Part shown: positions 19,542-36,216 of the stretch, piece by piece
How the letters are laid out: the number at the start of each line of letters is the position of its first letter
Position numbering within the stretch: position 1 is the stretch's first letter
Source of the DNA: a virus
Lineage: Duplodnaviria > Caudoviricetes
DNA: 64,000 nt
IMG/VR virus record: IMGVR_UViG_3300031998_000031
Span: 1-64,000 of that record
Strand: one strand, 5' to 3'
Program-made: the position numbers and the translations under genes
Notes under the pieces: model-generated
Seen by the model: the letters and a program-made list of their open reading frames with translations, nothing else
Told to the model about the DNA's origin: nothing
The model's database searches: none

Positions 19542-20249
19542 ATGAATAAAGCAGAGCTTGATTATTACTACGCGATGTACCTTGCCATGGAAGGCGTGCC
19601 CATCTCTTCTGCCAGACTGGATGGCGAATGGGATGAGTCCCTGCACCCCAGAGATGAGGACGGTAAGTTCTCGGATGGCACAGGCGGCGGAACAAAGGCT
19701 GTACCGGCCAAGGATACGCATGCCAAGACTACAAGCCCTTCGGGAGCGGGCAGGATTAAGGTCGCGGGTCCCAAGGCGACTAAGCAGTTTATCAGCGAGT
19801 ATACGAAGGCTCATCCTGAAATCAAACAAGATGCCAAAAAGTACGCGAACGTGCTTAATGATGTGACACACTTTAAGGAGAAGTATCCGAACGCCGAGCC
19901 TAACAAGTCCTACGATGCTGTCACTGGCGAATTGGTGGATGTGAATAAAGGATACTGTGTCACGTTCCATCAGAACAAGGCTGTAGGCGACGAATACGGC
20001 GACTACGACGCAGATGACTATGCAGCCATGTGTGCTATTGCTATGAAGGAGCTTGGCGCAGATACATGCTACATAGGATATTTCGGAAATCCCGAAGTGT
20101 CTTTTAACTGCCCGGACTTCGATACGGCCAAGAGGTTTGCCATTGAGCATAACCAGCAGTCTGTGTACGACGCGGCTAATGGCGAGCTGTGGATAAATAA
20201 ATACTGGGATGAGAAGCTTAACCCCATAGCGGGTTGGGGGAGTAATTAA
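19542..20249 (+). CDS. Putative head cargo protein; C-terminal domain resembles SAM lyase/DUF3293-like proteins
   Basis: RLD followed by WDESLHPRDEDGKF; C-terminal GYF..PEVS...A..FA..HNQQSV. Confidence 0.55.
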   Translation: MNKAELDYYYAMYLAMEGVPISSARLDGEWDESLHPRDEDGKFSDGTGGGTKAVPAKDTHAKTTSPSGAGRIKVAGPKATKQFISEYTKAHPEIKQDAKKYANVLNDVTHFKEKYPNAEPNKSYDAVTGELVDVNKGYCVTFHQNKAVGDEYGDYDADDYAAMCAIAMKELGADTCYIGYFGNPEVSFNCPDFDTAKRFAIEHNQQSVYDAANGELWINKYWDEKLNPIAGWGSN

Positions 20250-20250
20250 A

Positions 20251-20547
20251 ATGAAGATTGATAGCGAGAAGTGGGAGGCGGCGTTCAAGTCGTTTACCGA
20301 GAATCCCGGCTGGGCGGCGTACTATAACAATGCGCCGTCTGACGAATGCAAGGATTATATAAAGTTCACCTTTTACAGCAGTGAGTATAACGAGCCGAAG
20401 GACCGCGATGAGCGCAAGCAGCTCAGGGACTTTTTCTACAGCAAGCTGGGTGTAAAAGACTGGAAATATATCATGGACCACGCTGGCAATTCCCCGCTCA
20501 GGGCAGTATGTCAGGCGTACATAGATAAGCTTTCCCAAAAGGCTTAA
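20251..20547 (+). CDS. Small partner/immunity-like protein
   Basis: Starts 1 nt after the upstream stop; followed by a terminator. Confidence 0.6.
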   Translation: MKIDSEKWEAAFKSFTENPGWAAYYNNAPSDECKDYIKFTFYSSEYNEPKDRDERKQLRDFFYSKLGVKDWKYIMDHAGNSPLRAVCQAYIDKLSQKA

Positions 20548-20590
20548 TGTTACACCATAAAAAGGCAGAGGCCGTTCCTCTGTGAGATTC

Positions 20591-20618
20591 GCGGGCTACT
20601 AAGGCCCGCTTTTTATTT
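20591..20618 (+). terminator. Rho-independent terminator
   Basis: GCGGGC-loop-GCCCGC-TTTTTATTT. Confidence 0.65.
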
Positions 20619-20712
20619 GCTGCTTTCGTTGGGGACGAGGCAGTTATTTTTTTACGCATGGAGGCTGGATATGACTACGAGATATTCAGGATGCGTTTAG
20701 TAGGTAGGAGAA

Positions 20713-21213
20713 ATGTCAAAACCGAGCAGATACAATCCTGAGTACCATGATAATTGGGCGTGGTCACTGGCTATCAAGGGTGCGACCGATGAGGAAATCG
20801 CTGATGCCTTTGATATGTCACGTCAGACTATAGCCCGCTGGAAGGCCAAGTATCCTTCCTTTAACGAAGCTCTTAATAACGGAAAGGATATCGCGGACTC
20901 CAACGTAGAGAAGTCTCTCTACAAAAGAGCTGTCGGATTCACGTACGAAGAGTATGAGCGTTCGAAAGAGGTCGACAAGAACGGCGAGGTAAAGACCGTA
21001 AAGAACAAGACCGTCACCAAGACCGTTATTCCGGACACTATGGCCATTATGTATTGGCTGAATAACAGGAAGCGCGGTACATGGGCACAGAAACAGGAAG
21101 TTCAGCTATCTGCCAGTGAAGAAGGCGACACGAATATCATCATATCGTTGCCGTCGAATGGAAGGCGGAGATTTGTAGATGAAGGACCTGACGAAGCCGA
21201 ACAAGAAGAGTAA
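20713..21213 (+). CDS. terS: Terminase small subunit
   Basis: GATDEEIAD.F...T..RW...YP.F HTH, VEKSLYKRA.G, PDT.A..YWL.NR. Confidence 0.9.
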   Translation: MSKPSRYNPEYHDNWAWSLAIKGATDEEIADAFDMSRQTIARWKAKYPSFNEALNNGKDIADSNVEKSLYKRAVGFTYEEYERSKEVDKNGEVKTVKNKTVTKTVIPDTMAIMYWLNNRKRGTWAQKQEVQLSASEEGDTNIIISLPSNGRRRFVDEGPDEAEQEE

Positions 21214-22618
21214 CAAGAACTTAGTCGTTATAGCTCCGCAGCCGGGGCCTCAGATGGAGTTCTTGTCTACACCGGCGGACGTTGCTATATACGGCGGCGC
21301 TGCTGGCGGTGGAAAATCCTTTGCACTACTGCTTCAGCCTCTGGCGTTCGTAGATGTGAAGGGCTTCGGATGCACGATATTCCGAAAGAATCATATACAG
21401 ATATTCTCTGAGGGCGGCCTGTGGGATGAGTCCAAGACGCTCTATGGAAAGGTCAAGAATGCAGAACCGAGGAAAGGTTCAACATCTTGGATATTCAAAG
21501 ACAAGAACGGCAACGAGATATCCAAGGTCAGTTTTGCTCATATAGAGCGAGATGAGGAACTTCCGAACTGGCAGGGCAGCCAGATTTGCATGATAGGATT
21601 CGATGAGCTGACGCATTTTTCCAGACATACTTTTCTGTACATGCTATCCCGTAACCGTTCCCTTTGTGGCGTAGAACCATTTGTCAGAGGCACATGCAAC
21701 CCGGATGCCAACAGCTGGGTCGCGGAATTCATATCTTGGTACATCGACCAAGAGACGGGATACGCTATCCCGGAGCGCAGCGGCGTGATACGCTGGTTTT
21801 TGGTGTATCAGGATGTGGTTTACTGGGCGGATACGAAGCGGGAACTTGATGAGCAGTTCGCTTTCATTCCTCCGGGCCCAGACAAGCCGATTCCAAAGTC
21901 GTTTACATTCATCATGTCGAGTGTTTACGACAACAAAGAGCTGCTTAGAGTAAACCCCTCATATATATCCAACCTTAAGTCACTGCCGCTCATAGAGCAG
22001 GAGCGCTTGCTTAAGGGCAACTGGAAAATTAAGGCCTCTGCGGGCCTGTTCTTCAAGAGGACACAGGTTGGCGAGTTCTTGCAGGTGGTCCCGGATGATG
22101 TAATCAGATGGGTGAGGTGCTGGGACTTGGCAGCCTCAGAAAAGACCGACAAGGGCGACCCGGCATTTACCGCCGGAGTCCTGATAGGCAAACGCAAGAA
22201 TGGAAGGTATATCATAGCCGATGTGATAAGGCGGCAGATGAATTCCGGCGATGTCCGCAAGACCATAACTCATACAGCCCAGCAGGATATAGCCAAGTAC
22301 AAGCGGGTGAGGATAAGGGTCCCACAGGACCCCGGCCAAGCAGGCAAAGAGCAGGCCAACTCATATATCAAGCAGCTTTCAGGATACGACGTCGTGGCCG
22401 TGCTGGAATCTGGCAGCAAGGAATCCAGAGCAGAGCCTATGGCTGCGCAATGGCAGGCGGGCAACTTCGATATCCTTATAGGACCGTGGAACGATGAGTA
22501 CCTGCAAGAGCTTGAGAACTTCCCGGATTGGAAGTTTAAAGATATGGTCGATGCGTCGGCCAACGGCTTCAACGAGATAGAGACTAAGAGCCAGTTCAAT
22601 CTGGGCAACCTTATTTAA
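21179..22618 (+). CDS. terL: Terminase large subunit
   Basis: GGAAGGGKS Walker A, FDELTHF, TCNP, WDLA, D.VDA nuclease motifs. Confidence 0.95.
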   Translation: MKDLTKPNKKSNKNLVVIAPQPGPQMEFLSTPADVAIYGGAAGGGKSFALLLQPLAFVDVKGFGCTIFRKNHIQIFSEGGLWDESKTLYGKVKNAEPRKGSTSWIFKDKNGNEISKVSFAHIERDEELPNWQGSQICMIGFDELTHFSRHTFLYMLSRNRSLCGVEPFVRGTCNPDANSWVAEFISWYIDQETGYAIPERSGVIRWFLVYQDVVYWADTKRELDEQFAFIPPGPDKPIPKSFTFIMSSVYDNKELLRVNPSYISNLKSLPLIEQERLLKGNWKIKASAGLFFKRTQVGEFLQVVPDDVIRWVRCWDLAASEKTDKGDPAFTAGVLIGKRKNGRYIIADVIRRQMNSGDVRKTITHTAQQDIAKYKRVRIRVPQDPGQAGKEQANSYIKQLSGYDVVAVLESGSKESRAEPMAAQWQAGNFDILIGPWNDEYLQELENFPDWKFKDMVDASANGFNEIETKSQFNLGNLI

Positions 22619-22630
22619 AGGAGATTTACG

Positions 22631-23461
22631 ATGGATGATACGGTGAAGAGATTCAAAGAAAGACGTGCTGCAAGGATAATGGCTCGTATGGATGATTCTT
22701 TCGATGAGGGCAGATGGGTGACCACAGAAAAGGGTGACCATGTGCACCTCAACGAAGCCGGTGAGCCTGATGCGGGCAATAAGTACGTCATCGCAGCGAT
22801 GAAGTCGTATAAAGAACGCCCCAAGGCGGGTTTAAAGATAAAGAAGCCTAAGGAGTCATATGCAGAAAGCATAGGACAAAGCTCTTTTGTTCCTCAAGTC
22901 AAAAACGGTTATGTTATAGACAAGAAGGGCAATATACACGGCACAAATGTCCATAAGGGAAAGGACGGTGCATTGCACGCAACAGGAACGAAGATGGCGT
23001 TTGTCGATGAGAACGGCGATTCGTTCTACAGACCGTCAGAGTCATTCCTTGATGAGAACGGCGACGCTATCATTCTTGACCCTCCGGGCTATGAGGATAA
23101 CGCCGAGACTGCAAAGTCCGAGACGGCAAAGTCCGAGGCTCCGAAGTTTGAGGAAAAGACCTATGACCGTATCCCGCTTACGGCATATATGGGCTCTAAG
23201 TACGCAAGCCCCGAAGACCTAAAAAAGAAGAGAGAAACAATCAAGAGGTTCATAAAGGACGCCAAGGTTGGAAATGTCTATTCCGCTTCAGGCGGATTCG
23301 GAAGTGCCGGGGATTCTCTTTTTGAGATAGTGCACTCAAACAAATCCTCGAACCACATGGCTCTTAAATGGGTAAACTCAAAATATGGGCCAGTAGTGCT
23401 CAATAGCTCGAACGTTCTATCGTTTATCAAGAACGGCGCAAAGCTCGTAGAGCAGAAGTAG
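22631..23461 (+). CDS. Putative head cargo protein of unknown function with the shared leader
   Basis: MDDTVKRFKERRAARIMARMD leader, then WVTTEKGDHVHL. Confidence 0.7.
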   Translation: MDDTVKRFKERRAARIMARMDDSFDEGRWVTTEKGDHVHLNEAGEPDAGNKYVIAAMKSYKERPKAGLKIKKPKESYAESIGQSSFVPQVKNGYVIDKKGNIHGTNVHKGKDGALHATGTKMAFVDENGDSFYRPSESFLDENGDAIILDPPGYEDNAETAKSETAKSEAPKFEEKTYDRIPLTAYMGSKYASPEDLKKKRETIKRFIKDAKVGNVYSASGGFGSAGDSLFEIVHSNKSSNHMALKWVNSKYGPVVLNSSNVLSFIKNGAKLVEQK

Positions 23462-23470
23462 GATAGAAAC

Positions 23471-25300
23471 ATGGACAAGGCAGTTTTTGAATTCAGGATG
23501 AGGAGATATCAGAGGCTGGCGTCCAGAATGGATGCAGACGATGATGAGACTGGCGGCGGCGCTATGTATCGCCTGCCGTATGGCCTTTGCAACAACGCTG
23601 GCATAGATACTACAGGAATGTCTCCGACAGATGCTTGGAATGCACTGAAGGATAAGACCGGCTTTGGCCATGATGAGGCTTTGAAGCAGCTCAAGGATAA
23701 CAGCAAGGCCAAGAGTAAGAAGATAAAGTCTTTAAGCAAATCCATAATCAAGTATCAGGAAAAGGTCGACAGCTATGGAAGCGAAGACGACTATGATACA
23801 CAGCAGCTCATCTATTACGCTGGGCACCTTAAGGAGTATCGCAAAGATTTAAAGAACGCGAAGAACAACTTAGAATACTACACCTCCGAGGCTGACTACT
23901 GGGAAAAGGCTTCACAGACAAGCTATGAGGAGTGGTACAAAAACCATGAAATGTACAAGAACCTTTGGGGCTATAGCGATGAGGAGATGCGGGCTGATTA
24001 CGACAAGAATATAGCCGACTGGACCGGCATTGCTAAGACGTACAGAGAGCGGGCGAAGGATAACGAAGAAAAAATCGCCACGCTTACACCTTTAATCGAA
24101 AAGGCCGAGAACTACGCTCACGACAAAAAGATGCTTGTCAAAAAGCAGGCGGAGCTTGAGACCTTAAAGCACACCCCGGACTACTTTAACGAGCAGACCG
24201 CGGAAAAGGGCAAAGAGGCAAAGGCAGCATACATCAGTAAGAAAAAGGGTGAATGGGATTCTAAGGTCAAATCCAAGGTCGAGGAGATGCTCAAGCTCGA
24301 TGAGAGCGAGTATTCTGGAATTTGGAAGGATAAGACCGTAAGGCCGTCCGAGTACGAAGAGTACAAAGATAGCATAGAGAAGAAACGTGCCTATTATGAG
24401 ATGAATCTGCATGACCCCGATTCGGATGCAGACAAGGTCGCACGAGCTCAGGAAAAACTGAAGCAGCTTGACGATTTTGAAGAGAAGGGCAAGCAGTACC
24501 AGCAGCTGAGTAAAGAGCTGGCAAAGACTCAGGCTAAGGCTTCTAAGTGGGGCGCTCAGACTCTGGGCATGGCCGAGAAGCGTATGAAAGATACGCCTTG
24601 GAAGACCAAGCAGGAGGCTTACGATACCCTGATAAGCGGATGTGTAGATGTCTGGACGAATGCCTCCATGGATGAGCGCAAGGCCGCGCACAGATACACC
24701 GGCAACTTCAGCCCGTTCAACGAACCATTAAGAGGCATCGAATACGGCACGAGCGAGTACAAGGGTGTAGACAATATCGACTTCGACCATATCGGCAAGT
24801 ACGACGACGGCCAGACAAAGAAAGATATTATCAATCTTACCAACATGATAAGCCGGTCCGAGTGTCCGGAAGATATGTGGCTCCAAAGAGGCGTAGGTAC
24901 CAAGGGCGCGAGCAAACTCTTGGGCGTGTCGCAGAGCTTTCTTCAGAATGCTACTACCGAAGACTTGCAGTCGCTCGTCGGCACTACCCCCACGGAGCTG
25001 GGATTTTGCAGCTGTGCAACAGCCAAGGGCAGCGGGTTTGCGTTTAAGGATGTCATTCTTAACATATTCGCGCCGAAGGGCACAAAGATGCTGTATACGG
25101 AGCCGTTCTCTCAGTACGGCTCTGGCGCTAAGTCCGTGGGCTGGGGCGGAAGCACGGGACAGTCTGATATCAGCGATGAGTGCGAAACTCTTCTTCAGCA
25201 GGGCACCAAGTTCCGCGTAGCTAAAGCGTACGTCGGTTCTAAGATATACTTTGACCTTGTAGTTATCGGAGACAACCCGAAGGACCTCACGAAGGTGTAG
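23471..25300 (+). CDS. VIP2/Alt-like ADP-ribosyltransferase with the shared leader
   Basis: C-terminal YTG...NEPLRG, LQRG, GFCSCA, PKGT, ECETLL..GTKF (R-S-ExE triad). Confidence 0.88.
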   Translation: MDKAVFEFRMRRYQRLASRMDADDDETGGGAMYRLPYGLCNNAGIDTTGMSPTDAWNALKDKTGFGHDEALKQLKDNSKAKSKKIKSLSKSIIKYQEKVDSYGSEDDYDTQQLIYYAGHLKEYRKDLKNAKNNLEYYTSEADYWEKASQTSYEEWYKNHEMYKNLWGYSDEEMRADYDKNIADWTGIAKTYRERAKDNEEKIATLTPLIEKAENYAHDKKMLVKKQAELETLKHTPDYFNEQTAEKGKEAKAAYISKKKGEWDSKVKSKVEEMLKLDESEYSGIWKDKTVRPSEYEEYKDSIEKKRAYYEMNLHDPDSDADKVARAQEKLKQLDDFEEKGKQYQQLSKELAKTQAKASKWGAQTLGMAEKRMKDTPWKTKQEAYDTLISGCVDVWTNASMDERKAAHRYTGNFSPFNEPLRGIEYGTSEYKGVDNIDFDHIGKYDDGQTKKDIINLTNMISRSECPEDMWLQRGVGTKGASKLLGVSQSFLQNATTEDLQSLVGTTPTELGFCSCATAKGSGFAFKDVILNIFAPKGTKMLYTEPFSQYGSGAKSVGWGGSTGQSDISDECETLLQQGTKFRVAKAYVGSKIYFDLVVIGDNPKDLTKV

Positions 25301-25317
25301 CATCGTGAAGAATATAT

Positions 25318-25356
25318 ACCAAAACGCTTTACAAAGCATGGCAAATGTGGTATACT
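25318..25356 (+). promoter_or_regulatory. Repeated strong sigma-A promoter, copy 6 (upstream of ART partner genes)
   Basis: ACCAAAACGC-TTTACA-17bp-(TG)TATACT. Confidence 0.82.
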
Positions 25357-25376
25357 CACTTTTGGAGGTGTGATAA

Positions 25377-25649
25377 ATGTCTGAGAATAAATCGATAGTC
25401 GACAGATACGGCGACGAAGTTCTTACGGATAACAGTAAGATAATCAAATTCAGACAATGTATCGATTGCGTACACAGGGCAGACCGTGGTACGGCTTTGG
25501 ACTGGCTGGGATTCCAGAAGCAGTTCTGTAGGCAGTTCGACGGTGAAAGGACCCCGTTCAAGCCGCTCGAATTCAGCTTGGATGAGGATGACCCTGAATA
25601 CATGGAGTGCCTTCTGTACTGCAAAGATACAGACGAAGAGAGCGAATGA
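25377..25649 (+). CDS. Small Cys-containing ART partner (immunity-like)
   Basis: C..C.H...C..F...KP...C..Y; lies between ART and ARH; GGAGGTG RBS. Confidence 0.7.
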   Translation: MSENKSIVDRYGDEVLTDNSKIIKFRQCIDCVHRADRGTALDWLGFQKQFCRQFDGERTPFKPLEFSLDEDDPEYMECLLYCKDTDEESE

Positions 25650-26482
25650 CAGGGAATAAGAAACTTAGCGACGCTATATTGGGGCTTGCCATAGGCGATG
25701 CCCTTGGAGTCCCGTATGAATTCTACATGCGGGGCGCTTTCAAGTGCTGGGATATGGTAGGATTCGGTACCCATCACCAGCAGCTCGGAACATGGTCCGA
25801 TGATACTTCGATGACCATAGCGACAGCAAAGAGCATCAAGGGCCACAACGGCACAATCGATGTCGATGATATGCGCCAAAACTTCATGGAGTGGTTCACT
25901 GAGGGCAAATTTACCCCCGGAGGCAGAGTGTTCGATATCGGCTGCACGACGATGAATGCTTTGGCATCCGGCGAGCCCGGAGTCGATGTCCGAGATAACG
26001 GGAACGGCTCACTGATGCGGATACTGCCGCTGGCGTTCACCGATTGTTCAGACGATGAGATAAGAGCGGTGTCGGCTATTACTCACGGGCACTTCTTTTC
26101 AACAGAGGCCTGTGTGATATATGTACATATTGCAAGGAAGCTGCTGGAGGGCGAGGATATAGATGCTATAATCCCAACGCTCGTTTACGAGTATCCGTTC
26201 AACAGGCTGAGCATGATTAACACCCTAAGCGAGGACGTCATATCGTCAAGTGGATATGTCGTATCGACTTTGGAAGCTGCACTGTGGGCGATAGTTCACC
26301 GGGACAAAGATGAGCGCAGTTTCAAGCAGACGGTGCTCGACGCAGTAAACCTTGGCTACGATACTGACACGGTGGCAGCTGTGACAGGCGGCCTTGCCGG
26401 TATAATATACGGACTCGACGGCGAAGATGATTGGCTATCTAAGTTGAAGGGCAAAGATATAATCATGGACTGCCTCTGGTAG
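25646..26482 (+). CDS. ADP-ribosylglycohydrolase (DraG/ARH family)
   Basis: GDALG, WSDDT, GNGSLMR, TH, DTDT.AAV.G motifs; ATGA overlap with upstream gene. Confidence 0.95.
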   Translation: MTGNKKLSDAILGLAIGDALGVPYEFYMRGAFKCWDMVGFGTHHQQLGTWSDDTSMTIATAKSIKGHNGTIDVDDMRQNFMEWFTEGKFTPGGRVFDIGCTTMNALASGEPGVDVRDNGNGSLMRILPLAFTDCSDDEIRAVSAITHGHFFSTEACVIYVHIARKLLEGEDIDAIIPTLVYEYPFNRLSMINTLSEDVISSSGYVVSTLEAALWAIVHRDKDERSFKQTVLDAVNLGYDTDTVAAVTGGLAGIIYGLDGEDDWLSKLKGKDIIMDCLW

Positions 26483-26546: not shown

Positions 26547-29408
26547 ATGGGCGAACCTTTAATTACACCAGAGCTTCAGGCTCGATATGACAGCATCATC
26601 CGGCAGCAGACCGGCGTTAGTGATTACCGTAATGATGGTTTCGTTAACTTCGTCACCAAGTACGGGACCTACAGCGATGCCAACGAACACTACTTTTTCA
26701 TGCCGGAAGCAGATGTTTCCGACGACACGCTGACCAGATTCTATGAAGGAAATGGACTGTTCGCAAAGATAATAGATGTCCCGGCGGAAGAGGCAATGAA
26801 GCACGGGTTCACGCTTGGCGATTTGGCCGATGCCGAAATCATTGATTACTACCAGAAGATATGTGAAGACCTTGACTTGGAAGAGTCCATGACCATAGGC
26901 ATGCGCTGGGCAAGACTTTTCGGCGGTTCGATAGGCGTAATGCTTATCGACGACGGAAGGGGCATAGACGAACCTCTCGATTGGAAGCACATAAAATCCG
27001 TCGATGGCATCCGCGTTTTTGAGCGTGCGATAGTCCAGCCTGATTACCAAAGCATGTTTAGGTATCAGCACAAGGACCCGTACAGGGCCAGACGGAAGGT
27101 CATTGGCAGTCCTGAGTATTATTACGTGACGAGCAAGTACGGATATTTTGCCGTGCACGAGAGCAGGACATTGCCGTTCCTTAACGGAACACTGCCTGAG
27201 AATACATCGAACAGCGTATATCAGATTTGGGGCCTGCCTGAATACATAAGGCTCCATAGAGCCATACGCGACGCCGAGACCGCGCACGGAAGCGCGAACA
27301 AATTGCTCGATAGGTCGGTGCAGGCAGTCTATAAGATGAAGAACCTTTCCGAGGAGCTTGCGACAGAACAGGGAGAGGAAAGAGTCCTTAAAAGGCTTCG
27401 GACCATCGACATGGCGAGGGGCCTTTTAAACAGCATTACGATAGATGCCGAGGGCGAAGAGTACGACTTCAGACAATTCACCTTTACTGGAGTGTCTGAT
27501 GTAATCGACTGCACCTGCAACTTCGTTTCGGCGCTTACGAACATACCGCAGACCATACTGTTCGGGCGCAGTCCCGCCGGTATGAATTCCACGGGCGAGT
27601 CAGATAATGAGAGTTGGTACAGCTTCGTAGAGCGCATCCAAAAGAGGATGCTCAAAGGCAATCTCAGATATCTTACATCTATCATCTTTGCGGCTGGAAT
27701 AAATAGCGGCAAGCTCAAGGAATTCCCCAGCTTCGAGATAGAGTTTAACCCGCTGTGGACGCAGAGCGAAGCCGAAAAGGCTGACCTTGACCTCAAGAAG
27801 GCCCAGACGGCTCAGACCAGAGCGGCGACTGCGATGACTTATATCCAGAATGACGTAGTAACGCCTGAGGAAGTCAGGAAGAACCTTGCCGATTCTGATG
27901 AGTTCGATGTCGAAACGATGCTCGACGATATACCCGAAGATGAGCTGATGTCTGAAGATATCATGAATGACATGATGAATGCGCAGCAGCCCGGAAACGG
28001 ACAAATGCCGCCCGGAAACGCGCCGGGTGGTATAAATCCCCAACAGCCCGCAGAAAACCCCGCTATAGGGCAAGGGCAGGCTCAGGCTGCCGATTCTGAT
28101 GTAGATGCGAGCTACGAGGATATCGTCAATATGGAGACCGCGAAACGCGTCAACGAATCCATGGCCGCGGAGGAAGAACCTGAGACCAACGAAGATTCTG
28201 AGGCGGATGTCGAGCAGGCCTATGAAGATGTGGTGAATCACGAGACCGCGATACGCGTAAACGAGTCCTTGGACTACAGTATGGAGTTCGATGAGGACCC
28301 TGATACGGAGTCCCCGGTCGATGCTGAAAATTTCGGCGTCGGAATCTTAGTGATAAAGGACGGGAAGATACTTCTGGGCGAAAGGCTCCAAGGTAATCAG
28401 CCCGGAACGCTTTGTGGTCCCGGCGGACATATACACGTTGGAGAAACGCCGCTTCAGGCTGCTATAAGAGAGTCTGACGAAGAGTTCGGAATCATCCCCA
28501 CAGACCTAATGTACATCGGCTCCCTGAAGAACGAGCGCGGTAAGTCATATCAGTTCCTGTGCACCGATTACGAAGGCGAAATCACGGCCAAAGATGGCGA
28601 GATGGGCAGCCCACGTTTTGTTGACCCGCAGTGGTTGATGGAAAATCAGGACAAACTGTTCTCTCCGTTCGCTCAGGCTGCTGGCATGACATTCTATAAG
28701 ATAGGGGCCGCCGATAACAACCCCTTTAATACGGATGGAGATGAGCCTGATGGATGGATTGCAGAAGATGGTAATCGTACTTCTGCTGATAGCGACGATA
28801 ATCTTGTGGAAGGACAACCTGAGGCCGTAGAGCAGCGCCTTGGCGAAGGTATAGACAGCCGCTTGGATGGTGGCCCCGGCTCCGGCAACTTCGGACACGG
28901 AGGGAGACCCGGTGAAATCGGAGGTTCGGCTCCGAACGACAGCTCAGGCAGTGCTAATACTGAAGAAAATGCACCCAAACACTTGACAAACAAGGGCGAA
29001 CGTGATACGATTCAATCACAAAAGAGCACTAATCCCGGCCCCGTAGTTAAAATAAATTCTTCCGAACTGCGTGAAGCGCTTAAGAGCGGAAAGATAAGCA
29101 CAAAACTGCGGATGTCTCGACAGAACAGGCATATAAAGGGGACGCCCGAATACGAGGCTGCATCCAAGACCAGAAACGTCGGATATATCACGATAACCCC
29201 TGAGGAGGTTAGAGAGATAATCGAAAAATACGCTGGCCGGGGCGCAGCTTACGGAAACGGAGTCCAGTTCAAAGAGACCATCGATGTCGGGAAGGTGATT
29301 GGCGTACACGTAAGCAGAGCGGGGAAAGAGAGCGAGACTACGAGATGCACCATCCACTATGGAGAAAAAGGTGCTCACATAGTGCCCGCGGCCCCGGCGA
29401 GGTATTAG
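26547..29408 (+). CDS. Portal protein (DUF1073-like) fused to a Nudix hydrolase and a C-terminal Ntox50-like toxin domain
   Basis: Portal motifs ARLFGGS, IPQT.LFG.SP.GMNSTGESD, F.PLW; Nudix box at 28422-28490; toxin QNRH..GT...TIHY..KGAHIVP. Confidence 0.88.
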   Translation: MGEPLITPELQARYDSIIRQQTGVSDYRNDGFVNFVTKYGTYSDANEHYFFMPEADVSDDTLTRFYEGNGLFAKIIDVPAEEAMKHGFTLGDLADAEIIDYYQKICEDLDLEESMTIGMRWARLFGGSIGVMLIDDGRGIDEPLDWKHIKSVDGIRVFERAIVQPDYQSMFRYQHKDPYRARRKVIGSPEYYYVTSKYGYFAVHESRTLPFLNGTLPENTSNSVYQIWGLPEYIRLHRAIRDAETAHGSANKLLDRSVQAVYKMKNLSEELATEQGEERVLKRLRTIDMARGLLNSITIDAEGEEYDFRQFTFTGVSDVIDCTCNFVSALTNIPQTILFGRSPAGMNSTGESDNESWYSFVERIQKRMLKGNLRYLTSIIFAAGINSGKLKEFPSFEIEFNPLWTQSEAEKADLDLKKAQTAQTRAATAMTYIQNDVVTPEEVRKNLADSDEFDVETMLDDIPEDELMSEDIMNDMMNAQQPGNGQMPPGNAPGGINPQQPAENPAIGQGQAQAADSDVDASYEDIVNMETAKRVNESMAAEEEPETNEDSEADVEQAYEDVVNHETAIRVNESLDYSMEFDEDPDTESPVDAENFGVGILVIKDGKILLGERLQGNQPGTLCGPGGHIHVGETPLQAAIRESDEEFGIIPTDLMYIGSLKNERGKSYQFLCTDYEGEITAKDGEMGSPRFVDPQWLMENQDKLFSPFAQAAGMTFYKIGAADNNPFNTDGDEPDGWIAEDGNRTSADSDDNLVEGQPEAVEQRLGEGIDSRLDGGPGSGNFGHGGRPGEIGGSAPNDSSGSANTEENAPKHLTNKGERDTIQSQKSTNPGPVVKINSSELREALKSGKISTKLRMSRQNRHIKGTPEYEAASKTRNVGYITITPEEVREIIEKYAGRGAAYGNGVQFKETIDVGKVIGVHVSRAGKESETTRCTIHYGEKGAHIVPAAPARY
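28973..29011 (+). promoter_or_regulatory. Repeated promoter, copy 7, embedded in the portal-toxin CDS
   Basis: ACCCAAACAC-TTGACA-17bp-(TG)TACGAT just upstream of the toxin-domain codons. Confidence 0.7.
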
Positions 29409-29746: not shown

Positions 29747-30676
29747 ATGAATAATCAAATATACCGGGAGACCGTAAAAAGGGTCGTACAGGACGATTTT
29801 AAGGGTCAGGAACAGGTCGCGAGCAAGAAGATGCCACGATACCCGATGTCATCCGAGCGGCAGATGCGCATGATTACTAATGCGTATATGAGAGTCCTGA
29901 ATGAGGAGCTAAAAAAAGAGCTTCCGACAATCCTTGCAGCCTACAAGGGCGAGCGAGCTGATATGCGCATGGACGACGCGTCAGACTTCAGAAGCGCGGT
30001 CCGCAGCGCGTTCTACAGGATTCTGCAACGGATGGAGAAGCGCTATTCGAATTTCGAACTTGAAGAAGAGCTGACCCGCATATCCAAGATGACCAAGGAC
30101 CGGGCCAAGCGCGAATGGCAGCAGATGATTAAGCGCACGTTCGGCGTCAATATCTTGGAGGACTATTACAGCGATGCGTTCTACCAAGACATGTTGAAGC
30201 AGTGGGTAGACGAAAACGCGGCTAAGATACAGTCGATACCCAAGGACGCCTTGGACGATATACAGGAAACGATTCTCGAAGGCTACGAAGAGGGCTTGAC
30301 CATAAGAGACATGGCAAAAGAGGTCCAGAAGGACTACGACATGTCAAAGCGTAAAGCCACGCTGCTGGTAAGGGACCAAGTAGGGACCCTGAATGCCGAT
30401 ATCACAAGGCGGCAACAGGAAGACGCCGGTGTGAGCGAGTATAAATGGTCGGATTCGCATGATGAGCGCGTCAGAGACTGCCACAGAGAGTTCAATGGCC
30501 ATATATACCGATGGGATGACCCGCCGGAAGAGTGGTACGACACCAAGAGCAGAGGCCGGGTATACACCGGGAAGTATTACAACCCCGGAGAATCACACTG
30601 CTGTAGATGCTGCGCGATACCAGTATTTAATATCAACACGTTCGATATTCCGATACAGCCCGTATTCGAGGAATAA
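29747..30676 (+). CDS. MuF/SPP1 gp7-family minor head protein (no toxin extension)
   Basis: RDQ...LN, Y.W....DERVR..H...G..Y.WDDPP, PG...CRC. Confidence 0.92.
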   Translation: MNNQIYRETVKRVVQDDFKGQEQVASKKMPRYPMSSERQMRMITNAYMRVLNEELKKELPTILAAYKGERADMRMDDASDFRSAVRSAFYRILQRMEKRYSNFELEEELTRISKMTKDRAKREWQQMIKRTFGVNILEDYYSDAFYQDMLKQWVDENAAKIQSIPKDALDDIQETILEGYEEGLTIRDMAKEVQKDYDMSKRKATLLVRDQVGTLNADITRRQQEDAGVSEYKWSDSHDERVRDCHREFNGHIYRWDDPPEEWYDTKSRGRVYTGKYYNPGESHCCRCCAIPVFNINTFDIPIQPVFEE

Positions 30677-30691: not shown

Positions 30692-30729
30692 ACTAAAACG
30701 CTTTACAAATTAAGATAATATGCTATAAT
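30692..30729 (+). promoter_or_regulatory. Repeated strong sigma-A promoter, copy 8
   Basis: ACTAAAACGC-TTTACA-16bp-(TG)TATAAT. Confidence 0.78.
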
Positions 30730-30751
30730 GTATATGGGAGGAATGACCTGA

Positions 30752-32131
30752 ATGGATAAGGCTGTCGAAGAATACAGAAAACGTAGACAAATCCGGCTCG
30801 ATGCGAAAAAGGCCGTAGCGGACTATAAGCAGCGGCGATATGAAAGAATCATGAGCAGGGCGTTCAGAGTCGATAACTTTGCTGGCATGGTATATGCCAC
30901 GCTCAAGGATGAGGGAATCGACACTCAGGACATGGAGCTTCCCGAAGCCATCGAAAAGTTCAACGAGCTGAAAGGCAAGAACGGTGGTGGCTCGAAAGAT
31001 ACTTCTGCAAAGACCCCCAAAGAGGCAAAGACTCAGAGCGGGAGCGAACCCCCTCAAAACAAAGCTCCTGTGGCCAAGGCCTCCAAGCCGACAACAAAAA
31101 GCTCTGTGCCTGCCTCAAAGGGTCTTAAAACAGCGTCCGAAAGTTCAAAAGCGAAAAAGAGCGCCGCAAACGAAAAGCCGCAGGAGGCTAAGGGCAGTCC
31201 TGAGACATCAAAGGCGGTCGGCTATGTCAAGACCGGCAAGAACGGCAACCTTATCCCTAAGACCGAAACTGCTAAGACCATCGACGTAAAGGGCACGATT
31301 GAGCACAATAAAGACGGCAGTATCAAGCCTAACTCTCTCACAAAATACATCGATAAGGACGGCAATCTGAGCCCTGAGCGTCAGGCGGTCCACGATGAGA
31401 TAATCAAAAAGTTCTTTGCTGAAAAGGTCCCGTTCGACGGACAAGCCACTATGATAATGGCTGGCGGCGGTCCGGCGTCTGGCAAGTCCTTCATCAGTAA
31501 GGGCGCAAATTCTCAATTTGGAAAAGATACCACTGTCAAGATAGACCCCGACGAATTCAAGGCTATGCTTCCGGGATTCAAGGATATGGCTATCGAGACC
31601 GATGAGGCCGCCGGGTTCTATCACGAAGAGTCCTCCGCGCTGGCAAAGAGAGCATATCAGTTTGCTGCTGACAACAACCTGAATGTGGTGTATGATGGAA
31701 CTGGAGATGGTTCTGTAAAGAGCGTCATGAAGAAGCTCCAGACGGCACGTGATGCTGGATACAAAATCACGGGACAATACGTCACAGTCGACACGGATGA
31801 AGCTGTAAAGAGGAACCAGCAGAGATATGAGAACGCTTTAGCCAAGTACAACGCTGGAGAGAGTGAAATTCCCCCGAGACTTGTCTACGAAAATTATGTT
31901 CGCGATATACACAGCGCTGTATCAGATATTTCCATACAGGTCGCAAATCTTTATGATAGCTTCGAGCTGTATGATAACAATGTTCCGCAAGGCTCTCCAC
32001 GGATACTTATCGCAACCTGTTCAAAGGGTGGCGATTTGACCGCCGTAAAAGGGCAGGAAGATAAGCTCCAGAGGTACTTGAATAAAGGAAAGTCTGGAGC
32101 AAAGGTGGTAAATGGTGTCGTAAAGAATTGA
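30752..32131 (+). CDS. Zeta-toxin-family P-loop kinase with a duplicated shared leader
   Basis: GGGPASGKS, IDPDEFK, HEESS, VYDGT, A..RN..R motifs. Confidence 0.85.
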   Translation: MDKAVEEYRKRRQIRLDAKKAVADYKQRRYERIMSRAFRVDNFAGMVYATLKDEGIDTQDMELPEAIEKFNELKGKNGGGSKDTSAKTPKEAKTQSGSEPPQNKAPVAKASKPTTKSSVPASKGLKTASESSKAKKSAANEKPQEAKGSPETSKAVGYVKTGKNGNLIPKTETAKTIDVKGTIEHNKDGSIKPNSLTKYIDKDGNLSPERQAVHDEIIKKFFAEKVPFDGQATMIMAGGGPASGKSFISKGANSQFGKDTTVKIDPDEFKAMLPGFKDMAIETDEAAGFYHEESSALAKRAYQFAADNNLNVVYDGTGDGSVKSVMKKLQTARDAGYKITGQYVTVDTDEAVKRNQQRYENALAKYNAGESEIPPRLVYENYVRDIHSAVSDISIQVANLYDSFELYDNNVPQGSPRILIATCSKGGDLTAVKGQEDKLQRYLNKGKSGAKVVNGVVKN

Positions 32132-32142
32132 GGTGATGTGAT

Positions 32143-32361: not shown

Positions 32362-32385
32362 TAAGGAGAACTGAATGTGATTGAT

Positions 32386-32415
32386 AAAAGAGCGCCTACG
32401 GGCGCTTTTTTATTT
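32386..32415. terminator. Bidirectional-type terminator
   Basis: AAAAGAGCGCC-TACG-GGCGCTTTTTT. Confidence 0.75.
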
Positions 32416-32426
32416 GGTGCCATGGC

Positions 32427-32618
32427 GTGAAAAAATTCGACATGATAAAGGCCTACATTCGATATGGGGATGGCAACAGGCCTATATGTATATGTAAGAG
32501 ACCGAACGGCAGAGCATGCCGTAAAAAATATAATTGCGAGCCTGAGGTAGTATGGCGGGACATCTACTACCGATGGGAACAGACTATGAATACGAATAGG
32601 TTTGGCAAGGACTATTAG
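32427..32618 (+). CDS. Small basic Cys-containing protein
   Basis: 63-aa ORF with GTG start and weak RBS. Confidence 0.45.
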   Translation: MKKFDMIKAYIRYGDGNRPICICKRPNGRACRKKYNCEPEVVWRDIYYRWEQTMNTNRFGKDY

Positions 32619-32645
32619 TCCCTGCCTTTTTGTTTTGGAAGGAGG

Positions 32646-32999
32646 TTGACGATGGCCATGAAAAAGAGCGTCAACATGGACGGCATGTACGACGGCAAGA
32701 TGACCGAAACAGATTATCTGCTTCAGTATCTGAGTAATGCTGCAAACGACATGTGCATGTTCAACAACAATCTTGAAGAGCTTCAGGACCAAGGCAAGGA
32801 GACTACCGATGCCTATGGGCTGACCAAAGAGATGCTGATGAATGCGCTTGGTCGCACTCAGCGCCTGCTGCTTAAGGTCACTGAGGTGTTGACAGAGACA
32901 CGAGAAGATGAATCGGCGTTTTTTGCGGGCGAGCTCACTGAGGTGAAGAAGCCCGACGTAGAACACGAGCTGCCGGTCGAAGAGGAGGCCGAGGAATAA
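32646..32999 (+). CDS. Acidic head-module protein
   Basis: GGAGG RBS; abuts the DUF2213 gene. Confidence 0.7.
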   Translation: MTMAMKKSVNMDGMYDGKMTETDYLLQYLSNAANDMCMFNNNLEELQDQGKETTDAYGLTKEMLMNALGRTQRLLLKVTEVLTETREDESAFFAGELTEVKKPDVEHELPVEEEAEE

Positions 33000-33000
33000 A

Positions 33001-34635
33001 ATGTCTGCCCCCACGTTAACAAGAGTCACGCGGCTCGATGCGATGCCGTTTGGTGCTACATATTACACGGCTGAAGGATTCCTGAGAGATAGCCCGATAC
33101 TTACCTCTACGGGAATCTTTGAGTATACGAACTACGATGGTTCGAAAAGAAGGGAGCTTCGACTTCCTGAGGATGTTTTTGACCCTGAAAGCTTGGCGAG
33201 TTACCTTGGCAAGCCTGTGGTAATCAGTCACGATGCGGGACTCATCGACAAGAATAATGTCAGTGAGAATTCAATCGGAACGATTATCAGTAAGGGTTAC
33301 CAGTCCGGCAATGACGTTCGTGCCGATATCGTAATCCACGACACGGACGATATGAAGAGTTGTGGCTTCAAGGAGCTATCCCTTGGATACAGCCTTGACT
33401 TGGATGAGACGCCCGGTGTCTGGAATGGCGAACGGTACGATGCTGTTCAGAAGAACATCCGCATTAACCATTTGGCTTTGGTGCGGGAAGCCAGAGCTGG
33501 TGAGCAGGCTCGACTGAATATTGACAGCCGAGACGCAAAAACTCTTATAGGAGGAAAAGTAATGAAGAAAAATCCCAAGAAGACCAGTCGTGCTGACGGA
33601 ATTCTCTCTCCTGAAGAGCTTGAAAAGGCCATTAAGGAGTACAAGGCAAAGAGAGCTTCCGAAGTACAGGCTGACGAAGACAAGCCTGAAAAGGCTGTCG
33701 AGTCTGTTGCGGTCGAGGAAAAAGAGGTCGCGGCGGAAGTTCCGGCTGAAGAGACCCCTGCCGTAGCAGAAGAGACCCCTGCCGAGGTAGAGGAAGAGCC
33801 CCTTGTCGTCGAGGAAGACGAAGACGATGAAGAGGAAGTCACCGAACCTGTGGAGGAGCCTGAGACCGTCGAGGAACAGGTAGCTGTTCTCAAAGAGAAC
33901 CGCGACCGTAGAGATGAGGACGGAGACCCTAAGGATGTCGACGACGCTATGGTTACCATCGCCCATCAGGACGAAGATATTCAGAAACTGTTCGATATCA
34001 TCGATACCCTTCTCGCTCAGAGAGACTTCAAGGAATCTAAGGAAGATTCTGCTGACGAAGACATCCCCGACGCTGAAAAGGGTGACGTACCGTTCGAGGC
34101 GGAGCCCAAATGTGACGGTAAGAACTGCGATTCCGAAGACGTCCTTGTAGAAGAGGAAGTCAACGAGGATGAGGACGACGAAATCGTTGAAGAGGAAGTC
34201 GTTGAAGAGCCTGTAGAGGAAGTCAACGAGGACGAGGATGAGGAGGAAGAGGACGACGAAGAGGAAGAGCTTCGCGTCAATACCGATTCTGTAGATGAGA
34301 TAGTCCGCACTAAGGTAAATCTCGGAATGCTCGGTCGCGGCCTTGGCATTGAGGGTCTTGAGAACCTCAAGATAAAGACTGCTAAAAAGGCAATCATCAG
34401 CGCAGTCAGACCCAACATGAGACTTGACGGAAAGTCCGATACCTTTGTAAACGTGGCCTTTGATATGGCCGTTGCAGAGATAGAGGCAAAGTCCGTTAAG
34501 GATACAAACTATCAACTTAAGCAGATGTTCAATTGCGACGCTGCAACCGTTAAATCCAATGACATACCCTCTGCAACTGAAGCGCGTCAGAGAATGATTG
34601 ACCGTCAGCAGAGAAAGAACAAGGAGGAAAAGTAA
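33001..34635 (+). CDS. DUF2213 prohead protease/scaffold (nested scaffold start at 33562)
   Basis: GIFEY, ELSLGY, NHLALV..ARAG; acidic C-terminal half; internal AGGAGG plus in-frame ATG. Confidence 0.88.
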   Translation: MSAPTLTRVTRLDAMPFGATYYTAEGFLRDSPILTSTGIFEYTNYDGSKRRELRLPEDVFDPESLASYLGKPVVISHDAGLIDKNNVSENSIGTIISKGYQSGNDVRADIVIHDTDDMKSCGFKELSLGYSLDLDETPGVWNGERYDAVQKNIRINHLALVREARAGEQARLNIDSRDAKTLIGGKVMKKNPKKTSRADGILSPEELEKAIKEYKAKRASEVQADEDKPEKAVESVAVEEKEVAAEVPAEETPAVAEETPAEVEEEPLVVEEDEDDEEEVTEPVEEPETVEEQVAVLKENRDRRDEDGDPKDVDDAMVTIAHQDEDIQKLFDIIDTLLAQRDFKESKEDSADEDIPDAEKGDVPFEAEPKCDGKNCDSEDVLVEEEVNEDEDDEIVEEEVVEEPVEEVNEDEDEEEEDDEEEELRVNTDSVDEIVRTKVNLGMLGRGLGIEGLENLKIKTAKKAIISAVRPNMRLDGKSDTFVNVAFDMAVAEIEAKSVKDTNYQLKQMFNCDAATVKSNDIPSATEARQRMIDRQQRKNKEEK

Positions 34636-34636
34636 C

Positions 34637-35128
34637 ATGAGTGCACAGACCACCTACAAGTTCAATCCCGTAATGGGCGCGGCTGGCGGAATCGTTGACC
34701 TTGCCCCGTATGAAGTAAATGCCTTCATCGTTGAAGAGAACACCGGCGTTATGCAGGCAGGCGTAGCTGTCGTATCTGGAACCAAGGCTGGTTCTGATAT
34801 CAAGCTGCCCACCAGCACCAGCGGCCACTTCGAAGGCATCACCACCAACAGACGTACCAATGAGCACGGCCTTGAAGGCGAGACCTACATCCGCAAGGGT
34901 CAGGCTCTTGGCGTAATGAGATACGGCAGAATCTACGGAAGAGTAAAGACTGGCGTATCCGTAGCTTATGGCGAGCAGGTTTACGTTCTCGTATCCGGCG
35001 ACGAGAAGGGATATCTGACCAATGTTTCCACCGACAACATGCCCATCAACGCTACTTTCCAGAGTGCAGTTGATAATGGCGTAGCAATCGTAGAGATTGC
35101 CAACGCTCCGTATGTTGCCAGCAACTAA
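34637..35128 (+). CDS. Capsid decoration/cement protein
   Basis: Between scaffold and MCP; G.AVV, VMRYGRI pattern. Confidence 0.72.
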   Translation: MSAQTTYKFNPVMGAAGGIVDLAPYEVNAFIVEENTGVMQAGVAVVSGTKAGSDIKLPTSTSGHFEGITTNRRTNEHGLEGETYIRKGQALGVMRYGRIYGRVKTGVSVAYGEQVYVLVSGDEKGYLTNVSTDNMPINATFQSAVDNGVAIVEIANAPYVASN

Positions 35129-35151
35129 TCAGAAGGAGGGTTTTATCTAAC

Positions 35152-36216
35152 ATGAAGACCGAAAAGGACAAGAACCAGAAATATGACAAGGCGGAAGCTA
35201 AGACTCTGCTCAACTCTGCAATCCCTGCTGCTATCATGGCTTCCGAAGGAACCCGTTTCGATAGCGCGGAAGAGGCTTCCGTATTTTTCGCAAGAGAGCT
35301 CGACCACGTAAAGAGCGAATCTTACGACGTCGAGTATCCTGAGCTTACAGCCCTGAATCTTTTCCCCATCAGCTCTGAAGTAGATGCCGGTGCAGAGACC
35401 ATTACCTACTACACCTATGACAGACAGGGCCTTGCCGATATAATCGACAACTACAGCACTGACCTGCCCAGAGCTGACGTAAGCGGCAAGCCGTCTTATG
35501 CAACCATCAAGTCCATCGGCGCAAGCTATGGCTACTCCACTCAGGAAATGAGAGCTTCCAGACTTGCCAACAAGTCTCTCGATGCTCGCAAGGGAGAGGC
35601 AGCTCGCTATGCCATCGACAACAAGATTAACCAGATTGCATGGGCTGGCGATGCAGATGCTAAGCTGCTTGGCGTTCTGTCTGATGGACAGAACATTCCG
35701 TTCTACACCATTCAGGCTGGTGCCACCTCTGGCGCTACCAAGTGGACCGAGAAGACCGCAGATGAGATTCTCGATGACGTAAACGGAATGGCCAAGCAGG
35801 TCGCTAAGGTCACCAAGAACGTAGAGAGACCTGATACTCTCGCCGTACCGGCTGACGTCTACATGCACATCAGCACCAAGAGAATCCCCGATACCGCTCA
35901 GACCGTACTCGGATTCCTCCTTGAGCATTCTCCGTATATCAAGGATATCGTAAACGCTGCCGAGCTCGACGCTGACAGTCCTGAGACCAACCCGTACGCT
36001 GAGGGCGCTCCGGGAGTTGCTCCGGATGCTGGCGTAGGCGTAGCGTTCCTTTTCAAGAATGATGCTCGCAAGCTCACTCTTGAGGACCCGATGCCTTTCT
36101 ATCAGTATCCGCTCCAGACAAGAAACCTTGAGACCGTGATTCCTTGTGAAGCAAGAACCGCCGGTGTCATCGTTTACTATCCGCTCTCCTGCCTCATCGC
36201 AGTAGGCGTTTGCTAA
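35152..36216 (+). CDS. Major capsid protein (DUF2184/encapsulin-like HK97 fold)
   Basis: FFARELD.V....YD.EYPEL, DLPRAD, E.RTAGV.VYYP; strong RBS and terminator. Confidence 0.92.
   Translation: MKTEKDKNQKYDKAEAKTLLNSAIPAAIMASEGTRFDSAEEASVFFARELDHVKSESYDVEYPELTALNLFPISSEVDAGAETITYYTYDRQGLADIIDNYSTDLPRADVSGKPSYATIKSIGASYGYSTQEMRASRLANKSLDARKGEAARYAIDNKINQIAWAGDADAKLLGVLSDGQNIPFYTIQAGATSGATKWTEKTADEILDDVNGMAKQVAKVTKNVERPDTLAVPADVYMHISTKRIPDTAQTVLGFLLEHSPYIKDIVNAAELDADSPETNPYAEGAPGVAPDAGVGVAFLFKNDARKLTLEDPMPFYQYPLQTRNLETVIPCEARTAGVIVYYPLSCLIAVGVC

Follow-up and report, generated by a model that had tools for sequence, protein, structure and literature searches.

A basic N-terminal leader shared by unrelated effector proteins of a DUF2213/DUF2184 phage: a candidate cleavable capsid-targeting sequence

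A basic leader at the start of otherwise unrelated proteins

The sequence analysed here is the first 64 kb (64,000 nucleotides; the window) of the IMG/VR virus record IMGVR_UViG_3300031998_000031 (Duplodnaviria; Caudoviricetes), a single contig of 110,939 bp from an uncultured phage. Four proteins of this phage, three of them encoded in its head module, begin with a short basic leader ending in R-hydrophobic-D, and we consider whether this leader is a cleavable capsid-targeting sequence. The head module spans 19.5–36.2 kb, with all its genes, the terminase among them, on the + strand. A megablast comparison of the head region with cultured phages gave no DNA-level match; by protease sequence the closest cultured phage is Faecalibacterium phage FP_Brigit (59% identity). 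The genes carrying the leader, together with one whose start resembles it, are listed below by window position; a slash marks the candidate cut, aa denotes amino acids, and L numbers denote contigs and loci used for comparison.

22631..23461, + strand: 276-aa protein, cargo family unassigned; basic leader aa 1–21 (22631–22693), ending R-M-D/D, then W-V-T-x-x-x-G-x-H-V-x-L
23471..25300, + strand: 609-aa ADP-ribosyltransferase (ART); leader aa 1–21 (23471–23533), ending R-M-D/A
30752..32131, + strand: 459-aa Zeta-like kinase (PF06414, 2e-22); two tandem leaders, aa 1–17 ending R-L-D/A (30752–30802) and aa 18–41 ending R-V-D/N (30803–30874)
Genome 72565–73692 (L174:2066-3193; outside the window): fifth leader gene, 375 aa, TTG start after GGAGG
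19542..20249, + strand: 235-aa protein, cargo family unassigned; non-basic leader aa 1–27 (19542–19622), ending A-R-L-D/G, then W-x-E-x-x-HPRDEDGKF

An earlier note on this DNA had described an alignable leader on the 22631, 23471 and 30752 proteins. This was borne out by a search of all six frames of the window with the core pattern [FYW][RK].RR..R[ILMV], which matched only the N-termini of these three proteins (twice, in tandem, in 30752), and was extended by the copy at 72565. Over the whole 110,939-bp genome the pattern matched seven times, giving five leader copies on four proteins and two matches that are not leader-like. The consensus of this helix-like peptide reads (M/hydrophobic)-D-x-[AS]-V-x-x-[YF]-[RK]-x-R-R-x-x-R-[LI]-x-x-R-hydrophobic-D, with a length of 16–24 residues and a net charge of +2 to +5. 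The copies are dissimilar at the DNA level and alike at the protein level, and therefore selection appears to act on the peptide. The proteins that follow the leaders are mutually unrelated by BLAST, Pfam and PHROG, and the leader itself is covered by no Pfam, NCBIfam or PHROG model.

The same note had proposed a divergent leader on the 19542 protein. Its start does read MNKA...ARLD, but the hidden Markov model (HMM) of the leader gives no match there; 19542 shares with the leader proteins only the R-L-D/G ending, and it also carries an HPRDxxGKF tag.

Short conserved motifs lie behind the leaders. W-[VI]-T-x-x-x-G-x-H-[VA]-x-[ILP] is found in 22631 (22715–22750) and in the 72565 protein (genome 72649–72684), and W-x-E-x-x-H-P-R-D-x-x-G-K-F in 19542 (19644–19670). 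Both motif types recur in relatives and on the portal extension of FP_Brigit. The 22631 protein has no Pfam, PHROG or NCBIfam match; a homologue with the same leader and the WIT motif is present in L166. The ART is laid out as leader, acidic linker, an LPYGLC..GI..DAW module and a C-terminal ART domain, residues 329–607 matching phrog_16625 'Bxa ADP-ribosyl transferase' (1e-24). In the 72565 protein, whose gene adjoins a CHAP endolysin and lysis genes and is distant from the head genes, the leader is followed by the WIT..G.H motif and a C-terminal HExxH; the anthrax lethal-factor peptidase family is matched weakly, below threshold.

The leader family in other phages

Most phages with a related portal (41–63% identity) lack the leader; two, L002 and L009, carry it on several proteins. 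A word-index search with residues 1–45 of the Zeta-like kinase returned only the protein itself, and a scan of IMG/VR with the degenerate DNA pattern MDKAV..Y[RK].RR gave one true match (L002) and two chance matches. The module behind the leader served as an anchor for fetching 28 IMG/VR loci with 6 kb of flank on each side; a homologous portal match was present in 27 of the 28 stretches.

This second module reads (GGHGNT)-[KR]-L-P-[FY]-G-L-C...G-I...P-x-D-A-W-x-A-L and lies at 23570–23650 in the window (ART aa 34–60). It is weaker in the Zeta-like kinase (aa 43–75), and is also seen in L009 and L144–L171; conserved in 37 unique open reading frames (ORFs) from the 28 loci, it is covered by no Pfam model.

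The module loci, the earlier loci and the genome itself were screened with the leader HMM (E <= 0.01), which yielded 33 unique leader ORFs, ten of them with tandem doubles. Of 43 copies, 38 begin within 40 residues of the start of the called ORF. The last leader is followed by R-[MLFVIY]-D in 28 of the 33 ORFs and by R-G-D in one more, and the next residue is alanine in 23. In the tandem leaders every unit has a hydrophobic-D pair on both flanks. Across 26 aligned leaders from many contigs V5, R11, R12 and R15 (ART numbering) are invariant.

A profile of these 26 leaders was searched against 1.84 billion cluster representatives, and found 103 clusters at E <= 1e-3, 11 of them at E <= 1e-10. 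In about 93% of the 103 the leader stands at the extreme N-terminus, on proteins of 41–1180 aa. Pfam assigned Zeta_toxin to four of the clusters, ADPrib_exo_Tox to two, ATLF-like to two, and RelA_SpoT and aminotransferase to one each; the PHROG matches were mainly 'head morphogenesis' and 'minor head protein', with 'zinc-finger protease' and ARTs, one of them Alt-like, in addition. The earlier note had expected such a search to find the leader on varied enzymes and only within head modules. The cargo is indeed varied (Zeta, ART, RelA/SpoT-like, metallopeptidase-like, mostly unassigned), but the system is not confined to the head module, the fifth leader gene lying beside the lysis genes.

The leader peptides are short, and one might ask whether their likeness arose by chance or by a recent, functionless duplication of the DNA at gene starts. 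We give this reading practically no weight: all five copies in the genome are N-terminal, and the dissimilarity of their DNA, the invariant residues and the 103-cluster profile result refute it.

The cargo behind the leaders of the 33 ORFs falls into about ten BLAST clusters, a spread that bears on a second explanation, in which the leader is mainly a pro-peptide keeping toxic enzymes inactive or unstable in the producing cell until the protease removes it, and packaging depends on the WVT, HPR, Gly-rich or LPFGLC motifs. The toxin-like nature of the cargo (ART, Zeta, Ntox50 class), with immunity-like genes beside only some of it, would suit such a role, as would the short conserved motifs, which always follow the leader and also occur leaderless at portal-fusion junctions. 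Against this, a helix of 20 residues is unlikely to act as an inhibitor when more than 100–300 residues of linker precede the enzyme domain, and one and the same leader stands on some ten unrelated cargo clusters. We regard the pro-peptide explanation as quite improbable.

Candidate cut sites in the leaders and the head proteins

Sites resembling the leader endings are found in the structural proteins of the module:

26547..29408, + strand: 953-aa portal fused to NUDIX and Ntox50 (Pfam Phage_portal_3, NUDIX, Ntox50); candidate site R28-N-D/G near the N-terminus (26628–26636), and junction S-R-L-D774/GGPGSGNFGHGGRPGEIGGS (28860–28937) preceding the Ntox50 toxin
29747..30676, + strand: 309-aa MuF minor head protein (PF04233; phrog_324 positions 59–321 of 624); R74-M-D/D (29966–29974), N-terminal of the MuF domain
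33001..34635, + strand: 544-aa predicted prohead protease-scaffold fusion (PF09979, phrog_530); DUF2213 domain aa 1–199 (33001–33597), acidic arm aa 226–430 with a net charge of -76; candidate cut sites R11-L-D/A, R197-A-D/G and R474-L-D/G
35152..36216, + strand: 354-aa major capsid protein (DUF2184 / Major_capside; PF09950); R35-F-D/S (35254–35262) immediately ahead of the conserved N-arm

All the R-x-D sites cited in the earlier note (R28ND and R772LD in the portal, R74MD in MuF, R11LD, RAD and RLD in the DUF2213 protein, R35FD in the capsid protein) are present. The enrichment of R-x-D as such, which it had put forward for testing, was not found: with 4.2 sites per 1000 aa the head region is close to the 3.9 that its composition predicts, and the four structural proteins have 15 against 10.3 (shuffling p = 0.08). 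Of the N-x-D variants, in which the note had seen a recurring theme, those followed by a small residue are weakly enriched (7 against 2.9 expected, p = 0.025).

A narrower motif, R-[MLFIVYA]-D-[GASDN], was derived from the six leader endings alone and then tested on the other proteins. It occurs eight times in the portal, MuF, scaffold and major capsid proteins together against 1.19 expected, a seven-fold enrichment and a count reached in none of 1000 shuffles, and 12 times in the other 28,580 aa of the genome, where 10.5 are expected and there is thus no enrichment.

The sites are moreover largely conserved, as counted in 16–26 homologues from related contigs. In the capsid protein [RHK]-[FL]-D at residue 35 is kept in all 16 homologues, and in the scaffold R11-L-D is kept in 18 of 18, R474-L-D in 17 of 18, and R197-A-D, at the boundary of protease and scaffold, in 15 of 18. 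The portal site R28-x-D/G is kept in 24 of 26, and R74-M-D of MuF (basic residue and Asp together) in 12 of 19. The AlphaFold (AF2) model of the capsid protein has a mean confidence (pLDDT, predicted local distance difference test) of 50.9, with its N-terminal half disordered.

The DUF2213 protein resembles prohead proteases

The DUF2213 domain has the marks of a maturation protease. H77, S127 and H157 are invariant in 20 sequences with identities down to 31%. The AF2 model of the domain (pLDDT 78.6) aligns best to T4 gp21 (5JBL; Z 10.8 over 129 aa, root-mean-square deviation 2.8), followed by the herpes assemblins and proteases (Z 5.8–10.5), the best unrelated fold, MCE/MlaD, reaching Z <= 6.0. 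By comparison of folds, then, the 33001 protein is supported as a prohead protease-scaffold fusion; the very acidic character that the earlier note saw in this scaffold agrees with the charge of -76 in its arm. An apparent likeness of the leader to scaffold residues 203–220 (EKAIKEYKAKRAS) was dropped, the leader HMM giving no match on the window's own scaffold.

The family is widespread: tblastn found matches to the DUF2213 domain in 1652 phage records, Klebsiella siphoviruses being the most numerous. It is also homologous to gp24 of the Pbunavirus Pa193 (phmmer 3e-9), described as a scaffold protein under the capsid vertices (PDB 9B40; PMC11456595).

A candidate aspartate rule at junction tags and capsid N-termini

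The sequence at the portal junction, S-R-L-D/GGPGSGNFGHGGRPGEIGGS, is one instance of a Gly-rich junction tag that is very widespread; a degenerate DNA scan of IMG/VR gave at least 114 stretches with it. The tag reads GGPGSGNxGHxGRPGxxGGS in loci L030–L143. Among the matches listed, the residue before its G-G is K in 63, D in 51, L in 20 and N in 16, with others including Arg, and positions further upstream vary freely. Most of the listed contigs with several sites have one residue before the tag throughout; a few mix two.

In loci with a strong DUF2213 match, the residue before the tag is Asp at all 19 sites among the matches listed. Searching whole contigs, we found PF09979 in eight of ten Asp-type contigs, both negatives being about half complete, and in one of ten Lys-, Leu- or Asn-type contigs, where the match was weak (Asp-type against others, Fisher p = 0.0055). 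Peptidase_S78 was found, weakly, in one of five contigs with Lys-type tags, giving no simple mapping. Lys-type phages often have ten-residue N-terminal leaders of their own, such as M-T-I-T-L-L-V-R-V-K/GG.

Structures and sequences of other DUF2213 phages fit the Asp rule. In E217 and in Pa193 the model of the capsid protein begins at residue 66 of 382 (PMC10329688, PMC11456595); the orthologue of phage SN, of the same length, reads A-M-D64-S65-N66, placing the start of both models two residues after D64. The XM1 map lacks the first 30 residues of its capsid protein (PMC10457771). The protease of coliphage T1 belongs to the DUF2213 family, and its capsid protein reads V-K-Q-D/A-A-A-T in the region of residues 23–27 and its portal starts K-H-D/G-Y. 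The T1 protease-scaffold (370 aa; L172:12620-13732) has 13 [RKHN]-x-D-small sites, dense in the scaffold half, as expected for a scaffold degraded after assembly. PDB entry 9KZJ matches the T1 capsid protein, with the first 120 residues identical and a shared variant residue that differs in 9KMG. The FP_Brigit portal extension has D-R-M-D followed by the HPRDENGQF tag. A full-text literature search on DUF2213 found no paper on the cleavage specificity of the family, and the Pam3 paper does not mention cleavage.

Taken together, these comparisons support the Asp-ending motif as the best candidate for the cut site of the DUF2213 protease. They also bear on an explanation in which nothing is cut, the leader being a permanent anchoring helix that tethers the enzymes to packaged DNA, the portal/MuF complex or the capsid wall, with R-hydrophobic-D a helix-end or linker feature conserved in the lineage. 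With its strongly basic character (+2 to +5) the leader could be a DNA-binding element, and its frequent tandem doubling would raise avidity. Furthermore, SPP1-type MuF and the P1 Dar proteins are generally understood to be held in heads by binding and not by a cleaved signal (see PMC5512222). Against this explanation, the capsid protein, portal and scaffold, all of them typical substrates of such proteases, are enriched in the Asp motif and conserve it at their N-termini; the protease family and the Asp preceding the junction tag vary together; and each tandem leader unit has hydrophobic-D on both flanks. We therefore consider this explanation unlikely, while giving it some weight.

Cargo homologues fused to portal or MuF

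For four of the five cargo domains, relatives carry a homologue as part of the portal. In L010, L017 and L038, portals of 1893–1938 aa end in a domain that shares 53% identity with the Zeta-like domain over 262 residues; in L012–L014 the C-terminus of the 1563-aa portals shares 34% with the ART domain, which is also present on the portals of L061, L121 and L102. The 72565 cargo is 23% identical to the C-terminus of the L008 portal, and in L020 a portal-fused protein has a C-terminus 33% identical to the 19542 cargo. In phrog_324, where MuF makes up the N-terminal half, the C-terminal half is matched by the 72565 cargo as well; matches to the Zeta domain include a 'minor head protein' PHROG of 1440 positions and, in cyanophage PSS2, the minor head protein. 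Fusion to the portal or to MuF takes a domain into the head, which is therefore also the most likely destination of the free-standing leader versions; on the strength of these homologues, the leader cargo probably ends up in the capsid.

These homologues bear on a third alternative, namely that the leader proteins are not virion cargo at all and that the leader acts inside the cell, in nucleic-acid or ribosome binding or in localisation, having spread by recombination from one module. The leader gene beside the lysis cassette, and not beside head genes, would be natural on such a view. It has to contend with the homologous portals beside 27 of the 28 module-fetched loci, with the portal-fused relatives of four of five cargo domains and with the PHROG matches to head-morphogenesis fusion proteins, and its chances seem to us slim.

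Related phages have other leaders, ending R-M-D/GG and followed by the Gly-rich tag, as on ART homologues in L004; the address part thus looks interchangeable and the Asp constant.

The remaining genes and motif copies considered are:

25377–25649, + strand: small Cys-rich protein, no leader; likely ART immunity partner
25607–26482 (true start probably an internal ATG), + strand: ADP-ribosylglycohydrolase (PF03747, 3.9e-57), no leader
32646..32999, + strand: 117-aa protein ending ...E-D-E-S-A-F-F-A-G-E-L..., a copy of the capsid N-arm motif (32913–32939)
34598..35128, + strand: cement (decoration) protein (PF22758, 6.5e-19)
Window 32913–32939; L150:9293-12133; L162:6157-8286; L165:5701-9291; L010:9947-15529: copies of the N-arm motif

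The Cys-rich protein and the ADP-ribosylglycohydrolase are likely, by analogy, to be immunity partners of the ART. The portal gene with Ntox50 and the Zeta-like kinase gene are each followed by a 72-aa gene.

The capsid N-arm motif S-[AV]-F-F-[AEG]-G-E-L...Y-P is copied in accessory and portal-fused proteins; the N-arm of the capsid protein itself reads A-S-V-F-F-A-R-E-L-D...Y-D-V-E-Y-P. In relatives the copies lie almost always directly after x-x-Asp, ahead of a leader or junction tag. A cut before such a copy would expose an N-terminus like that of the mature capsid protein, and cargo may in this manner have a second means of attachment to the shell.

Proposed mechanism

We lean towards the reading that the leader is a cleavable capsid-targeting sequence, working like that of T4. 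On this reading it would serve as a capsid-targeting propeptide for free-standing effectors, namely the ART, the Zeta-like kinase, the HExxH protein and one protein of unassigned family, and would bring each of them into the scaffold core during prohead assembly. The DUF2213 serine protease would then cut after the Asp of R-hydrophobic-D/small, and the same rule would apply to the propeptides of the capsid, portal and scaffold proteins and to the junction ahead of the portal's Ntox50. Once released, the enzymes would stay unattached inside the head and be injected along with the DNA; in relatives, covalent fusion to portal or MuF would bring the same cargo domains there. Packaging, cut and injection with the DNA are inferred steps that lean on comparison.

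Of these steps the most weakly supported is binding of the basic leader helix (+2 to +5) to the acidic scaffold arm (-76), a proposal whose plausibility comes from the charges alone. A complex prediction for the protease domain (aa 1–185) with the ART leader (aa 1–40) scored 0.01 and is not used as evidence.

Several observations weigh against this reading, or narrow it. The earlier note had placed the cut at [RN]-x-D. The Asp is fixed across DUF2213 phages, but the position two before it, in 17 distinct junction sites of such phages, is R in five, N in five and another residue in seven, so that Arg or Asn there is a preference only; in the T1 sites this position is mostly K. The link between Asp and DUF2213 could come in part from the shared ancestry of one phage lineage. 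In the narrow motif the hydrophobic and small residue classes were picked after the leaders had been seen. The leader HMM, run on the scaffolds of relatives, gave 8.9 bits with a domain E of 0.25, which is not significant. Twenty leader proteins from relatives gave no significant Pfam domain, the sole row being a sub-threshold NDUS4, and for most of the leader cargo of relatives an enzymatic nature is thus only presumed. One leader gene, 72565, lies outside the head module. Finally, the case as a whole for packaging, cleavage and injection has been made by comparison.

A broader generalisation can be put forward more tentatively, as a possibility that we would not yet back. Tailed phages may share a modular 'address and cut' code, in which interchangeable leaders and junction tags (the basic leader, the Gly-rich GSGNxGHxGRPG, HPRxxxGxF and WVTxxGxH) mark enzymes for capsid loading, and the residue before the tag is matched to the phage's own maturation protease (Asp for DUF2213; Lys, Leu and Asn elsewhere). 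Were this true, effector domains would move freely between portal-fused, MuF-fused and free-standing forms, the sets of packaged effectors would be readable from sequence, and there would be a route to loading chosen proteins into capsids.

Phage proteins injected with the DNA act first in infection, in host takeover and counter-defence. Outside T4 and the giant phages we know of no sequence rule for recognising them. If the reading favoured here is correct, the leader would allow packaged effectors of the free-standing kind to be recognised from sequence across a large group of phages of gut and rumen, and cleavage after Asp would be the first such rule for the very common DUF2213 family, which includes coliphage T1, Klebsiella siphoviruses and therapeutic Pbunaviruses. 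Moreover, the short tag could possibly be used for loading proteins into capsids.

Comparison with known systems

In our literature search no published description of a cleavable leader system in DUF2213/DUF2184 phages was found. Of the systems that have been described, the MuF polymorphic toxins of temperate phages (Jamet et al., 2017, PMC5576092; Bxa and Apk2, PMC11699363) share with the leader proteins the toxin classes (ART, RelA/SpoT-like and others), a place in head modules with adjacent putative immunity genes, and the capsid as presumed destination. MuF is regarded as a capsid-targeting domain, and in Bxa an ART is fused to MuF, next to a hydrolase and a small immunity protein (PMC11699363). 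The cassette of ART, small protein and ADP-ribosylglycohydrolase at 23471–26482 parallels Bxa-Bsi-BAH of Bacteroides prophages, with the leader replacing MuF. The difference lies in the linkage: those toxins are covalently fused to MuF, whereas here the 309-aa MuF protein is separate and the toxins carry a leader of about 20 residues; Pfam finds MuF (PF04233) only in 29747–30676 and in none of the leader proteins. A term search of the MuF toxin paper found none of the words 'linker', 'motif' and 'cleavage'.

Phage polyvalent proteins (Iyer, Burroughs, Anand, de Souza and Aravind, 2017, PMC5512222) likewise string effector domains on portal or MuF carriers. The portal-NUDIX-Ntox50 protein agrees with their definition (2–15 effector domains on a phage carrier), and the polyvalent-type portals of relatives (1300–1900 aa) hold homologues of the leader cargo. 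The leader proteins differ in being free-standing and in having a single cargo, and so fall outside that definition. A term search of that paper turned up neither 'leader' nor 'linker', and the passages it returned describe neither a junction tag nor a protease-matched cut site.

The T1-like phages and Pbunaviruses have in common with the present phage the homologous N-terminal DUF2213 domain and an Asp at the capsid N-terminus (V-K-Q-D/A in T1, A-M-D64/S in SN and E217), but lack a family of basic leaders on their accessory enzymes. Encapsulin cargo-loading peptides and the C-terminal tail of the HK97 protease are short peptides that address unrelated cargo to the inside of an HK97-fold shell. 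These signals are C-terminal, bind the shell or the delta domain directly and are not known to be cut, and they have no homology to the leader described here.

The closest parallel is the capsid-targeting sequence (CTS) of T4, carried by IPI-III and Alt and removed by gp21. In both cases a short N-terminal peptide is common to unrelated proteins, an ADP-ribosyltransferase among them, and ends in a protease consensus site, here a candidate one; the protease fold is the same, and in T4 the scaffold core is degraded by the same enzyme, as is proposed here. The two differ in that the sequences have no similarity, the present leader being longer, strongly basic and often doubled; in the residue before the cut, which is Glu in T4 (L/I-x-E/) and is predicted to be Asp here (R-hydrophobic-D/small); and in the fusion of the protease to the scaffold in the DUF2213 protein. 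As judged from these sequences, the leader is an analogue, and not a homologue, of the T4 CTS.

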